Positions 29,088 to 31,417 of a stretch of 64,000 nt of DNA are shown here, in pieces. The position numbers and the translations under genes are program-made. The DNA lies in assembly GCA_947384775.1 (NCBI GenBank), contig CANDIF010000002.1:123967-187966 (forward strand). Direction: 5' to 3'. Under the pieces are notes generated by a model. The model was not told the DNA's origin. It was given only the letters and a program-made list of their open reading frames with translations, and ran no database searches. How positions within the stretch are numbered: position 1 is the stretch's first letter; each line of letters starts with the position of its first letter. Source of the DNA: an uncultured Clostridium sp. (GTDB lineage: Bacteria > Bacillota > Clostridia > TANB77 > CAG-508).

Positions 29088-29117
29088 GGCACATCTGCTT
29101 TACAAAGCAAATGTGCC
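29088..29117. terminator. GC-rich hairpin GGCACATCTGCTTTACAAAGCAAATGTGCC (shared-loop family)
   Basis: Near-identical to the hairpin at 31384-31417, with compensatory stem changes. A T-run follows on the plus strand. Confidence 0.5.
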
Positions 29118-29301
29118 CATTTTAAAAGAGTTTAAACTTCAAATCTACTTTTTTAATCAATCCTTTTTATCATCAAAAAATAGAAATCAACTTATATTGA
29201 ATTTAGTTGACTTTTACTCATAGTATTGTTATAATTTTATTATCTTAACATATAACTTAATAAGTTTTAAATTAATGTATCTTTCTGTAATTTATTAAAT
29301 A

Positions 29302-29571
29302 TTACATTGCTTTCTTGTTATACATATCAATTCGTGGTGGTAGTTTTTTAGCAAAATTTGCAGTATCTTCATCAAATAATGCTTGTACTTTAATTCCAAA
29401 TGATTTTGCTATTAAATCTATATTTTTACATGTAAGATTTGCACAGCCTGTTTCTATAACACTTATATATGCCATTTTAAAGTTAGTTATATTAGAGTAT
29501 TTTTCTTGTGTAAATCCTTTTTGATATCTATACCATTTAGTATTAAGACCTATTAATTCCATACTCGTCAT
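29302..29571 (-). CDS. XRE-family helix-turn-helix transcriptional regulator
   Basis: Cro/C1-type HTH (...QEKYSNITNFKMAYISVIETGCANLTCKNIDLIAKSFGIKVQALF). The start is at the ATG that has a GGGAGG ribosome-binding site. The TTG in the ORF track is upstream of that site. Confidence 0.7.
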   Translation of the reverse strand: MTSMELIGLNTKWYRYQKGFTQEKYSNITNFKMAYISVIETGCANLTCKNIDLIAKSFGIKVQALFDEDTANFAKKLPPRIDMYNKKAM

Positions 29572-29594
29572 AAATTTACCTCCCAAGATATGTA

Positions 29595-29624
29595 TACATT
29601 AATAATTTATAATTTATTAATGTA
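29595..29624. promoter_or_regulatory. Candidate operator: inverted repeat TACATTAATA-N10-TATTAATGTA between the XRE gene and the divergent pilin-like gene
   Basis: Perfect 10-bp arms immediately upstream of the XRE ribosome-binding site. The short motif ataacttaataagtttta also recurs at 29250 and 29666. Confidence 0.4.
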
Positions 29625-29717
29625 TAAATTATATACTTGTCTGGCGGCAAATTTAACCCCATTATAACTTAATAAGTTTTATATGATAATATTTTATTAA
29701 AGGAGGCTTTACAACAA

Positions 29718-31230
29718 ATGAAGAAAGAAAATTTTAAAAACGAAAATCGGAATCACTCTAATTGCATTAATAATAACAATAATTGTAATTCTCATACTAG
29801 TTGCTATTACTATTAAAGTTGCTATTAATAGTGGTCTTTTTAAATATGCGGGAAAGTCTGTTAGTAATTACAACATGCATGAGACTAGAGAACGTTTAAG
29901 CACAGCACTATCAAGTGTTTTAGTTGAAAAATACTCTAATAAAGACTACAACCAAGATGCTTTTCTCGATGAATATATTACAAATAATTTGCCCAATTGT
30001 AAAATAGCAGGTGATGTGGTTCTAATTGACGGATGGGCTTTTGAATTAGATAGAACTGTACCTGAAATTGTTTCTAATTTAGGGCAAGGTAATCCAGAAG
30101 ATTTTAAACAACCTGATTTAACTATCACAAAAGGAACGCTTGCTAATGATAATTTATCTATTCCAATTAATATTACAGCTTCAGAATCTACTAATGGTAT
30201 AAGTAAAATAGAAATTTATAAAGAAGGCATACCAGAAAGTATAGAAACGTTTATTTGTTCTAATGAAAAAACACCCGTTATAAAAACATTTACTGCGTTT
30301 GAAAATACAAAATATAAAATAGTAGCATATTCTAAATTAAAAACTAATAAAACTATTGAAGTAACAGAAATAATTCTACCTACTCCTCAAATAGGAAATT
30401 ATGTAAGATATACTCCAGATGAATCAGAAAATTATACAAAAATAACAACATTAACAGGAGGTCATTCTAATCAATCAATCTCTCAAGATACTGAATTAAA
30501 ATGGAAAATCTTAAGTTTAAATGATGATGGAACAATAGAACTAATCTCAGATAGAGTTATTAGCTCAACTGTATCGCTTCAAGGAGCTTTAGGATATAAT
30601 AATGGCGTATACCTATTAAACGACTTATGTAAGTCGCACTATTCAAATGCAAGTTTAGGAGCAGTGGGAAGAAGTTTAAACTTACATGATATAGAAAAAA
30701 ATTTCAATGACGATGGAAAAAAAGCAAGAAACTCTTATACTTATAATTCAACTCTATTTTATGGAAGTAAAAAAACATACTCTGGAAATTATCCTGATAT
30801 TTACCAAAAGCATGATAAAGATACATCACAAACTGAAAATAATATAGCACAAATAGAAAGTGAAAGTTATTATAGTTCTCCAACAGATAAAGTGACTGTA
30901 TCTGAAAATAATTTAACAGTAGCCACTACAATTTATGATATATCTTCTCAACCCAATTACTACAATAAAGATAGTTTTCACAGTTTAATCTTTGGTGCTG
31001 GAAATACAACCTACTGGCTTGCTTCACGTGCTACTAGCACAGGTTCATATTATCCAGGTTTTAGTTTACATGCTATAAGTAATAATCAGATCACACATTA
31101 TGAATTATTTAATTGGAGTATCTATACTTATAGTCAGAATATAGCTGTACGTCCTGTAATAGAAATACCTGCAAATTATGAATTGAAGCCAATTCCTGGT
31201 ACAAATGAATTAAAAATTGTTGAAAAATAA
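29718..31230 (+). pseudogene. Large pilin-like (pseudopilin N-terminus) secreted protein whose N-terminus is frameshifted relative to the ATG with the ribosome-binding site
   Basis: An AAAGGAGG ribosome-binding site precedes an ATG at 29718 that opens only a 32-codon frame. The +1 frame from 29719 encodes RKKILKTKIGITLIALIITIIVILILVAI, a close paralog of the N-terminus of the 58745-59992 protein, and runs on into the 451-aa ORF. The indel lies in an A/G-rich run (ATGAAGAAAGAAAATTTTAAAAACG). Confidence 0.55.
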
Positions 31231-31383
31231 ATATATATATTAATCCAATAATCTTAGCATTTTTACAATTAAATTGCTTAATATTACTATATATTTTTAT
31301 TTTTCTCTAATTTTGACTAGTACAACACAATTACTACTTTTTAAATAAAATAATTTATAAATTAAAATGCAATATCATAAGAT

Positions 31384-31417
31384 GGGGCGCATCTGCTTTA
31401 CAAAGCAAATGCGCCCC
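31384..31417. terminator. GC-rich hairpin GGGGCGCATCTGCTTTACAAAGCAAATGCGCCCC at the 3' end of the GNAT gene (shared-loop family)
   Basis: 9-bp GC stem plus an inner TGCTTT/AAAGCA stem. It lies immediately 3' of the GNAT stop codon. Confidence 0.55.

Follow-up and report, generated by a model that had tools for sequence, protein, structure and literature searches.

A stem-loop with an invariant 22-nt apex, a candidate cis-acting RNA element, follows a GNAT acetyltransferase gene in gut Clostridium-like bacteria

Stem-loops in bacterial intergenic spacers can be compared with several described systems. Intrinsic terminators and 3' stabilising stem-loops are one such system, and terminator sequences normally drift freely. 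REP sequences occur in tens to hundreds of copies, carry a conserved GTAG head and have an associated Y1 transposase; E. coli REP stabilises upstream mRNA, and some REPs are RAYT-associated. Integron attC sites keep structure rather than sequence. CIMEs, and the IMEX or pdif modules that use Xer, are integrative elements without a recombinase of their own, and the site directly behind a terminator hairpin is a target for class C group II introns and IS elements. Here we compare these systems with three hairpins, hp1, hp2 and hp3, that lie in a 64-kb stretch of DNA from an uncultured Clostridium sp. (the whole stretch is called the window below; Table 1).

The initial annotation had singled out these hairpins for a common core, and all three sequences are present as described there. 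They are stable, G+C-rich stem-loops situated 3' of ORFs, as expected of intrinsic terminators, they fold with -20.6 to -45.3 kcal/mol (z -5.4 to -12.7), and they are among only nine strong G+C-containing hairpins in the 64 kb. Their common motif, CATCTGCTT(T)ACAAAGCA, is absent in shuffled sequence. CTGCTT(N0-2)ACAAAGCA occurs three times against an expectation of 0, and CATCTGCTTTACAAAGCA, found exactly at 29092-29109 and 31390-31407, has 0.07 expected matches in the window at up to three mismatches (0 of 100 shuffles reached 4). When run over the window, a covariance model built from the hp1 family finds exactly three copies, with scores of 65.5 bits for hp2, 65.2 for hp1 and 28.2 for hp3 against 13.4 for the next best hairpin. 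Shuffles and model scores thus agree with the earlier view that the hairpins are related rather than alike by chance.

hp1 and hp2 are identical at 22 of 22 central positions and at 28 of 30 overall, and their two differences amount to one compensatory pair (G-C in hp1, A-T, or A-U as RNA, in hp2), just as first reported. What had been taken for a "loop core" is indeed common sequence, but it is mostly inner stem, made up of nine pairs (one of them U·G) and a 4-nt loop; on the + strand the U·G pair becomes a C·A mismatch. The third hairpin had been credited with the same core. Here the resemblance holds but identity does not, with only about 20 of 23 positions in common and a loop that is 1 nt shorter in hp3.

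Table 1. Positions of the hairpins and neighbouring features in the 64-kb window.
Feature	Position	Strand	Remarks
bPH_2-domain membrane protein gene	16381..16905	+	GC 0.465; 3' end served by hp3
hp3, bidirectional intrinsic terminator	16973..17025	+	25 pairs; between convergent bPH_2 and holA
ychF	26964..28055	-	conserved promoter at about 28090-28118
Three small ORFs (74 aa, 63 aa, ParE/RelE-type toxin of 113 aa)	28217..28954	-	between hp2 and the ychF promoter; relatives lack them
hp2, hairpin-only paralogue of hp1	29088..29117	-	same 22-nt apex (29092-29113), 4 outer pairs
AT-rich segment between hp2 and hp1	29118..31378		GC about 0.26; at this place in no relative examined
XRE-like HTH ORF in the bracketed segment	29302-29586	-	
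Prepilin-like surface protein gene in the bracketed segment	29718-31230	+	apparent frameshift near 29740; ORF listed 29875-31230
hp1 stem-loop	31379..31422	-	begins 16 nt past the GNAT stop codon; from folding and covariance model
hp1 invariant 22-nt apex	31390..31411	-	GNAT-sense CATTTGCTTTGTAAAGCAGATG; + strand CATCTGCTTTACAAAGCAAATG
GNAT acetyltransferase gene	31433..31918	-	161 aa, GC 0.41, Pfam Acetyltransf_1; between polC and ychF

The hp1 stem comprises 15 continuous pairs, of which the inner nine (the U·G included) are invariant, as well as further outer pairs and a UGUA loop, and it folds with -31.7 kcal/mol on the - strand and -25.7 on the + strand (z -6.95). Orthologs of hp1 follow GNAT in six other lineages, giving seven lineages in total. 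An alignment of the hp1 family, eight copies from gut Clostridium-like bacteria with hp2 included, shows that the 22-nt apex is identical in all eight; only 4 of the 29 other alignment columns are invariant (Fisher p = 1.1e-10). Pairing is nonetheless kept in 97.8% of 136 pair cells, against 40-53% in slid registers, and seven of the eight outer pairs have changed, five of the eight on both sides. Neither the observed pairing nor the covariation score was reached by any of 500 shuffles, a statistic that overstates independence because the aligned sequences are phylogenetically related. The aligned copies bear out the proposal that the stems co-vary around a conserved centre, and such strict apex conservation (22 of 22 positions in eight copies, p = 1e-10) fits the further suggestion of a recognised site or protein-binding hairpin.

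The family also shows a consistent strand preference. All non-Watson-Crick pairing cells (eight outer cells in six columns, plus the invariant core U·G) are G·U on the GNAT-sense strand and 0 are G·U on the opposite strand; in each of the eight copies the sense strand is the more stable, by 2.4-8.8 kcal/mol. Compensatory change that keeps pairs, together with G·U on one strand only, is what is generally looked for in a structured cis-acting RNA. Because the wobble cells are all G·U on the GNAT-sense strand, hp1-type hairpins most likely act as RNA; strand asymmetry would not matter to a double-stranded DNA site and hence argues in the same direction. A U-tract right after the stem is missing in hp1, in hp2 and in all six hp1 orthologs (the sense-strand tails CUUAUGAU, GCCAUAUC and GCUAUAAU are examples without a U run), and hp1-type hairpins are therefore not canonical terminators. 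Thus, hp1 to hp3 resemble intrinsic terminators and 3' stabilising stem-loops in being G+C-rich, in lying directly 3' of a coding region and in folding best in the sense transcript, but hp1, hp2 and the hp1 orthologs differ from them in having no U-tract, and hp1 in having an apex that is invariant over 22 nt, G·U included.

Inspection of hp3 gives a different picture. With an A-tract on its 5' side and a T-tract on its 3' side (TATTTTT on the + strand), it alone of the three has the U-tract of a terminator; it folds with -45.3 kcal/mol on the + strand and -40.0 on the - strand, where its model score drops from 28.2 to 23.0 bits, and the strand that it favours is opposite to that favoured by hp1. 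Its core, CCATCTGCTTACAAAGCAGGTGG, resembles the hp1 core as read on the + strand and drifts in orthologs (relatives and other loci are given here by L numbers), reading CCACCTGCTAACAAAGCAGGTGG in L100 and CCACCTGCTTTCTGCAGGTGG in L101 and being unrelated in L106; this is the free drift usual for terminators. hp3 is an ordinary, canonical bidirectional terminator and evolves like one, and the real but partial likeness of its core to that of hp1 most likely reflects old common ancestry rather than shared function. A single function for all three hairpins, as first envisaged, is at odds with this drift and with the other strand being favoured, and the G·U pattern of the hp1 type points to a one-strand RNA.

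Two of the hairpins had been placed at the borders of GC-anomalous genes, and this is correct: hp1 and hp3 lie just 3' of GNAT and bPH_2, whose GC contents compare with 0.287 for the window. In relatives, the bPH_2 gene is syntenic (it adjoins holA) with a GC of 0.44-0.46, and GNAT orthologs adjoin ychF in all relatives found. Since GNAT, bPH_2 and the hairpins are in the same place on the chromosome throughout the relatives found, they are old residents and not recent cargo. The GNAT protein of the window is 60-65% identical to the others, against 80-88% among the others themselves; a promoter-like site of its gene lies at 31948-31976 (11/12 with TG in a promoter scan). In L035, L096, L115 and L118 the hp1-type hairpin is the sole structure ahead of the ychF promoter, which in four relatives lies roughly 30-50 nt downstream of the hairpin.

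Located 2.3 kb from hp1, hp2 follows the XRE-like ORF at a distance of 185 nt, with an AT-rich terminator-like hairpin in between, and precedes the 74-aa ORF by 134 nt. It lacks outer pairs that hp1 has and folds with -20.6 / -18.2 kcal/mol, as compared with -31.7 for hp1; the GGCA/TGCC form that it carries is also that of the native hairpin of relative L118. Comparison of hp1 with hp2 revealed no flank homology beyond the hairpin, and neither tblastn nor blastn detected a GNAT remnant beside hp2; a resemblance of its 3' flank to the ancestral flank is marginal (p about 0.08) and is not claimed. That hp1 and hp2 bracket DNA missing from relatives is well founded, as in the collinear L030, L035, L096, L115 and L118 only one hairpin is present and the segment is absent. 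This DNA is not the GC-anomalous cargo that had been supposed, having a GC of 0.256 and being AT-rich like the host. All strains found for the species carry it, as does every contig that has an identical YchF and reaches far enough upstream; homology to relatives picks up again at about 28134. The closest relative has the order polC, terminator, prepilin-like gene, GNAT, hairpin, ychF, with one hairpin only. No single inversion yields the window order from this arrangement, and a simple inversion between the near-palindromic hp1 and hp2 was accordingly rejected.

Outside the window the motif is rare. The exact 18-nt core occurs once each in the L030 and L035 MAG assemblies, the two relatives scanned. 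A scan of a genome collection for this core returned 77 loci, with hairpins in L030 and L035 only; the other loci are two conserved coding regions (in Flavobacteriaceae and Clostridia) and singletons in about chance number (roughly 17 expected). Nine loci came from a metagenome scan, two from the window's own species and seven in four independent groups, and these four non-clade groups (L079/L080/L084 and L085 included) compare with a rough chance expectation of 3-5. One of them, L079/L080/L084, is a multicopy long palindrome with the same apex in a Firmicute of GC ~0.5, for which we found no link to GNAT or bPH_2 genes or to a donor lineage. No match to the motif was found in viral contigs, plasmids or phages. 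With Rfam 15, only two tRNAs in the window reach the gathering score, and when E values of 10 or less are allowed, the hairpins match nothing but generic hairpins (U7, mir-2513), below threshold; a literature search with the core, read in either orientation and written as DNA or as RNA, returned no paper. Given the low copy number and the chance-level matches outside the clade, a dispersed or mobile family was rejected. The mobile origin first proposed, in which the motif would flank GC-anomalous cargo, is likewise not supported, in view of the synteny of the genes, the one copy per genome in two relatives and the absence of the motif from the viral, plasmid and phage collections. Two further candidates were discarded on reading the sequence, namely mimicry of a tRNA anticodon arm, as the loop register gives no 7-nt anticodon loop, and a small ORF through the hairpin, as the two copies would fall in different frames.

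In its arrangement the family recalls REP/BIME elements: the hairpin is an imperfect palindrome between cistrons, it may act as a barrier to 3' exonucleases, and a second, hairpin-only copy (hp2) lies elsewhere and lacks flanking homology. It differs from them in its one to three copies per genome and in having no GTAG and no RAYT; no Y1 (IS200/IS605-like) transposase was found within the window.

We consider it somewhat probable that the hp1 family is a lineage-specific 3' or intercistronic RNA stem-loop with a recognised apex, which has been duplicated once. The comparisons show that the hairpins exist, and they show the strand preference, the covariation, the invariant apex, the copy number and the synteny; transcription of the hairpin, its action at the RNA level, a role at a 3' end and a binding partner are inferred. 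In such a scheme, hp1, lying in the spacer between GNAT and ychF, would be the last part of the GNAT transcription unit, fold in the GNAT-sense transcript and define or protect the 3' end of that transcript, whether as a U-tract-less (factor-assisted) terminator, as a block to 3' exonucleases or as an intercistronic processing or stability element. The outer helix would need only to pair, whereas the 22-nt apex (nine pairs with the invariant U·G, and the UGUA loop) would be read sequence-specifically by a putative trans-acting partner. hp2 would be a single extra copy, still maintained as a hairpin, that arose with the rearrangement or insertion that put the XRE-like and prepilin-like genes between GNAT and ychF. 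A pure RNA-element model accounts for the lineage-specific DNA bracketed by hp1 and hp2 only as a by-product of duplication, and the invariant 22-bp near-palindrome could also serve as an operator in DNA or as a recombinase target that happens to coincide with the hairpin.

The most serious competitor, which we nevertheless regard as unlikely, is a DNA-level integration or recombination site, in which the hairpin, as duplex or cruciform, is an att-like target. Copies of it, as attL and attR, would flank an integrated 2.3-kb element, either decayed or non-autonomous, that a recombinase encoded elsewhere moves, as with CIME- or IMEX-type elements. The likeness to CIME, IMEX and pdif att sites is evident, with near-palindromic direct repeats of ~30 bp (28/30 identical) bracketing a small module that has no recombinase and is missing from all relatives examined, where single, "empty" sites are seen. 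Moreover, the core is invariant despite diverging surroundings, the extra DNA within a few tens of bases 3' of the hairpin is not the same in the window as in L114, the L030 spacer is longer just 3' of the hairpin, and the XRE-type regulator of the bracketed segment has weak phage affinities. The structure of the two copies, however, does not correspond to that of attL/attR hybrids: hp1 (GGGGCG/CGCCCC) and hp2 (GGCA/TGCC) are each internally complementary in the differing outer pair, and a crossover inside the core would have left mismatched hybrids. The extra DNA of L114 and L030 comes without a second hairpin copy, the closest relative has its prepilin-like gene elsewhere in the locus and a single hairpin, and a strand asymmetry of G·U would be unexpected for a duplex. 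No excision or strain polymorphism of the segment was seen. Neither an integrase (Phage_integrase, IntI) nor a transposase, an HUH protein or another recombinase family was found among the window ORFs and called genes scanned.

Comparison with particular site classes leads to the same result. Similarity to dif/Xer arms is lacking, in that the conserved XerD arm (TTATGNTAA) of the 28-bp dif site was not found near any hairpin; cumulative GC skew, whose switch marks the chromosomal dif, declines almost continuously through the hairpin region with no switch of sign. Like integron cassettes, the locus has gene-plus-hairpin units with a variable, co-varying stem, in tandem on the same strand (GNAT-hp1, XRE-hp2). 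A check against attC-like and other recombination-site models, which the initial annotation had called for, was negative at all three hairpins: a regular-expression search within 40 nt on either side, on both strands, returned no R'' (RYYYAAC) and R' (GTTRRRY) pair, the hairpins have neither extrahelical bases nor an associated IntI, and attC conservation is the reverse of an invariant apex. As with class C group II introns and IS elements, lineage-specific DNA lies directly 3' of the hairpin in the window and in L114, but this extra DNA has no intron RNA domains (Rfam), reverse transcriptase or transposase. The recombination or integration site envisaged at the outset is thus opposed by the lack of a recombinase among the genes scanned, of attC or Xer signatures and of a hybrid att structure.

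It is slightly less probable still that nothing special is at work, with three ordinary terminators of which hp1 and hp2 are a recent local duplication, hp3 is alike by chance or convergence, and apex conservation is slow change in a long helix. All three hairpins do lie 3' of ORFs, hp3 is a textbook terminator, and unrelated organisms have hairpins with the same apex, in a number of independent groups that matches the chance expectation. Ordinary terminators would not, however, be expected to lack a U-tract in seven of seven lineages, nor to vary in 0 of 22 apex columns against 25 of 29 others next to an outer helix changed at seven of eight pairs; and hp3 scores 28 bits where the remaining hairpins of the window reach 13 at most, so that pure chance is an unlikely cause.

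Improbable, too, is a double-stranded operator. Here the near-palindrome CATTTGCTTT-GT-AAAGCAGATG would bind a dimeric transcription factor that controls a neighbouring promoter (that of ychF in relatives), and covariation in the outer stem of the surrounding terminator hairpin would have ordinary causes. The strict conservation extends over a length typical of dimer operators, the conserved ychF promoter is close by in the four relatives mentioned above, and the loop TTGTAA with a -10-like box about 18 nt downstream is promoter-like in some orthologs (TTGTAA-N18-TATAAT in L035, a weak scan hit in the window). Yet this -10-like box is not kept in all orthologs, and in the window species neither copy adjoins the ychF promoter while both are intact. 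On the sense strand the asymmetric position reads U·G throughout, and no copy has made it symmetric. Within the 64 kb only hp3 could count as a further operator copy upstream of other genes, and its core deviates from the 22-mer in several places; the relatives' genomes add none, and a regulon of one or two sites would be unusual. Least probable of all is that an undescribed system of this Clostridium-like clade, one that binds RNA or ssDNA hairpins, uses the apex and its fixed U·G as its recognition module (for example, as a landing site for a host recombinase or nuclease), with the GNAT-ychF spacer as a programmed insertion hot spot and hp1 and hp2 as the ends of a captured gene module; site and enzyme would then differ from those by which integrons capture cassettes, but the process would be akin.

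Taken together, the relatedness of the hairpins, their covariation and the fit to a recognised site survive from the initial interpretation; the mobile origin, the recombination site and the single function do not. The locus also carries a caution, in that a hairpin next to GC-anomalous genes mimicked the signature of a mobile element, and comparison showed old syntenic residents and a normal terminator. If the apex is a recognised RNA signal, it would add to the cis-acting RNA motifs a new one of narrow distribution, which Rfam lacks. The clean anatomy of this element, with its co-varying base, invariant top and fixed G·U, would then offer a handle for finding the binding partner, and would help in understanding how 3' ends are formed without a U-tract in AT-rich Clostridia.

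The window is part of the core chromosome of a Clostridium-like spore-former rich in AT (28.7% GC), and carries spoVA and mur genes, infC, rpmI and rplT, rplM and rpsI, holA, ruvC, ychF, polC, the mraZ region, mfd and gatAB; among the scanned window ORFs and called genes there was no match to integrase, transposase or other recombinase families. The three hairpins described in the initial annotation (hp1, 3' of a GNAT gene; hp2; and hp3, between bPH_2 and holA) were found where it had placed them, and are three of only nine strong G+C-containing hairpins detected by a hairpin scan of the 64 kb. 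Exact CATCTGCTTTACAAAGCA occurs in hp1 and hp2, the pattern CTGCTT(N0-2)ACAAAGCA brings in hp3 as well, and a dinucleotide-shuffled window yields essentially no matches to either. The shared core is real, but 'loop', as it had been called, is a misnomer: it consists of an inner stem, in which CAT-N-TGCTT pairs with AAGCA-N-ATG, and a loop of 4 nt (3 nt in hp3). At the N/N position, hp1 and hp2 form a U·G wobble on the - strand and a C·A mismatch on the + strand. The two are identical at 28 of 30 positions, both differences falling in a single compensatory pair, as had been remarked; extra outer pairs make hp1 far more stable (-31.7 versus -20.6 kcal/mol for hp2).

Coordinates of hairpins, neighbouring genes and repeats (in the window unless a metagenome contig is named)
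Feature	Position	Strand	Remarks
GNAT gene, 161 aa	31433-31918	-	GC 0.41; own promoter-like site
hp1	31379-31422	-	starts 16 nt past GNAT stop codon; CATCTGCTTTACAAAGCA at 31390-31407
XRE-like ORF	29302-29586	-	hp2 185 nt after ORF
Prepilin-like gene, apparently frameshifted 5' part	29718-29875		
hp2	29088-29117		CATCTGCTTTACAAAGCA at 29092-29109
74-aa / 63-aa / ParE-toxin trio	28217-28954	-	hp2 upstream of trio
bPH_2 gene	16381-16905	+	GC 0.465; convergent with holA
hp3	16973-17025		pattern match at 16992-17005
holA	17025-18065	-	hp3 between holA and bPH_2
gatB 3' hairpin	52620-52650		ACACCCCACTTGCTTACTGCGAGTGGGGTGT
rseP-like M50 peptidase	35972-36698		divided into two ORFs
mraW	41325-41906		only profile positions 29-217 of 309 matched
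~90-nt repeat, listed copies	9076-9163, 10689-10783, 26862-26953, 35839-35937, 36725-36809, 42948-43034, 43705-43795, 56117-56215, 60125-60209, 61683-61768	+	
~90-nt repeat, listed copies	24464-24522, 25338-25443	-	
Firmicute palindrome	L079 4299-4416; L080 8946-9003; L084 1339-1400		contigs of GC about 0.5

With each species represented by a single genome, a scan for the 18-nt core gave 77 loci, only two of which are hairpins (L030 and L035, both from uncultured Clostridium sp. MAGs); each has the order polC, GNAT, hairpin, ychF, with nothing in the gap between hairpin and ychF promoter. A GNAT homologue search added further orthologous loci (L096, L114, L115-L117 and L118). Between GNAT and the ychF promoter, L035, L096, L115 and L118 have no structure other than this hairpin, and in L114 a 139-aa ORF separates hairpin from ychF. 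In L119/L117, the nearest relative (93% identity in polC), polC is followed by a canonical terminator, a 359-aa prepilin-like gene, GNAT, the hairpin and finally ychF. Remoter GNAT homologues (44-49% identity) lie in other loci with unrelated terminators. GNAT and hairpin are thus an old syntenic unit of the clade, not recent cargo. The genes for GNAT and the bPH_2 membrane protein keep a GC of 0.41-0.465 in ~0.29-GC genomes of all related lineages found (orthologs in L030, L035, L096, L100, L101, L106 and L114-L118), each adjoining the same conserved neighbour throughout, which indicates an old, persistent GC anomaly rather than a recent transfer. The window GNAT allele is an outlier, sharing 60-65% protein identity with the others, against 80-88% among those.

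Relative to L030, homology covers GNAT through hp1 and restarts at ~28134, at the ychF promoter. The intervening ~3.3 kb is peculiar to the window's species, in which all strain contigs extending far enough upstream have it; it is AT-rich like the host (GC 0.256), and contains an XRE-like regulator, a prepilin-like gene and a ParE module. Two near-identical hairpins beside such DNA could mark an att-like integration site, a reading we consider unlikely: neither attC core sites nor Xer arms occur at the hairpins, and a crossover within the common core can, from the sequences, be excluded, because each copy is self-complementary at the distinguishing pair and crossover would leave mismatched hybrids. 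hp2 is a copy of the hairpin only; no similarity was found between the hp1 and hp2 flanks, nor any GNAT remnant next to hp2, and the likeness of its 3' flank to the ancestral flank is marginal (p about 0.08). Its outer pair is A-U (G-C in hp1), a state also native to L118, and the G-C to A-U switch can go via a G·U intermediate.

Close relatives differ in gene content across the polC-GNAT-ychF interval, a hot spot of such variation (window 28135-31378, L114 1245-1664, L119 1408-1790 and L117/L118 compared); depending on the lineage, it has a 139-aa ORF, a prepilin-like gene (whose position and orientation both vary), an XRE-like gene or a ParE toxin module. In L119 and L118, a (CA)n/(AT)n microsatellite directly upstream of the prepilin-like gene hints at phase variation. 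In the window's prepilin-like gene, the N-terminal 'KIGITLIALIITIIV' segment differs in frame from the start codon, near an A-rich run, and from the 451-aa ORF; this gene, the rseP-like peptidase and mraW are among apparently frameshifted or truncated window genes that could be real pseudogenes, phase variation or homopolymer assembly errors.

A metagenome scan for CATCTGCTT(N0-1)ACAAAGCARRTG returned nine loci, two from the window's own species; the remainder form four independent groups: L079/L080/L084, a multicopy long palindrome of a GC ~0.5 Firmicute; L085, a terminator of Bacteroidetes type; and two matches that are not hairpins. Palindromic patterns tend to fall in terminators, and by rough estimate a ~20-nt-equivalent pattern should match 3-5 times by chance in about 10^12 bases; these matches provide no support for an element shared across taxa. 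The Firmicute palindrome (GAAAGCAAGGGGACGGTT-CATCTGCTTTACAAAGCAGATG-AACCGTCCCCTTGCTTTC), whose L079 arms are enlarged by GCAAGGGGACGG repeats into a 118-nt hairpin, matches the hp1 22-nt apex (inner stem plus loop) at 21/22, probably by chance given the route of its discovery, and nothing among the neighbours of its copies connects it with GNAT or bPH_2. Viral contigs, plasmids and phages held no match to the motif, no Rfam family matches the hairpins, a literature search found no paper containing the core, and the hairpin region has no GC-skew switch.

That the hairpins are nothing special is improbable in light of an alignment of hp1, hp2 and six orthologs, eight copies in all. Apex columns are invariant at 22/22, versus 4/29 elsewhere (Fisher p = 1.1e-10), and the outer eight pairs vary yet remain paired, with standard pairs in 97.8% of 136 cells and both-side changes in five pairs. 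None of 500 shuffles matched the observed pairing or covariation score, and shifting the partner by 1-3 columns lowers pairing to 40-53%. Wherever pairing persists without a Watson-Crick pair, which is so in eight outer cells spread over six columns and at the invariant apex U·G, the wobble is G·U as read on the GNAT-sense strand (the window's - strand), where the opposite strand would give A·C mismatches; the sense strand is the more stable in 8/8 copies, by 2.4-8.8 kcal/mol. Such asymmetry is expected if the structure works in the sense transcript; a duplex operator, which could also demand a fixed apex, predicts none and is improbable. No hp1 ortholog carries a U-tract behind its stem, so the family is not a canonical intrinsic terminator.

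By contrast, hp3 is a textbook bidirectional terminator, with a 25-pair stem preceded by an A-tract and followed by a T-tract. Orthologs lie 3' of bPH_2 in relatives, their cores drifting (CCACCTGCTAACAAAGCAGGTGG in L100, CCACCTGCTTTCTGCAGGTGG in L101, unrelated and GC-rich in L106). With an hp1-family covariance model, hp3 scores 28.2 bits (E about 2e-7) and its L100 ortholog 27 bits (L101 and L106, no match), against at most 13.4 bits for other window hairpins, so the resemblance is real. Wobble pairs and energy differences favour the + strand in hp3 (bPH_2 sense, opposite to hp1/hp2), which displays the complementary loop, and hp3 has none of hp1's sequence constraint; we take the likeness to be inherited from a common ancestral sequence and not to reflect shared function, convergence being less likely. 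The G+C-rich terminator hairpin 3' of gatB faintly echoes the core (CACTTGCTTAC...) but fell short of E = 10 in the model search. Far commoner than hp1, hp2 and hp3, and unrelated to them, is a structured intergenic repeat about 90 nt long, dispersed through the 64 kb in at least 12 copies (10 of the 12 listed on the + strand; also at L115/L116 3' ends). It folds as a long imperfect hairpin (representative copy TAGCTCCACGTGGATGTTCATTTTTAAATTTTTAAGCAACTGTATTAAAAATTTAAAAATCGAACATCCAGCAAGATGGAGCGGATTTTA) with co-varying arms (GGATGTTC/GAACATCC versus GAAAGTTC/GAACTTCC), and matches no Rfam family.

On balance, we lean towards hp1 being a clade-specific stem-loop in the GNAT-sense RNA, with hp2 an extra copy and hp3 an ordinary terminator. 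We infer that hp1 is transcribed and would act in the spacer between GNAT and ychF, at the GNAT unit's 3' end, as a non-canonical terminator, exonuclease barrier or processing element. Its outer helix would require pairing alone, and the apex, with its fixed U·G, would be recognised sequence-specifically by a putative partner; hp2 would be a single additional copy, made as the locus was rearranged or gained its extra genes. On present evidence this is not a new class of system but a new case, narrow in distribution, of a known element type, the 3' or intercistronic RNA stem-loop. Invariant apex and co-varying base contrast with unusual clarity, and one local duplication brackets lineage-specific genes; the interest lies in a candidate RNA motif and in the corrected reading of an apparent mobile-element signature.
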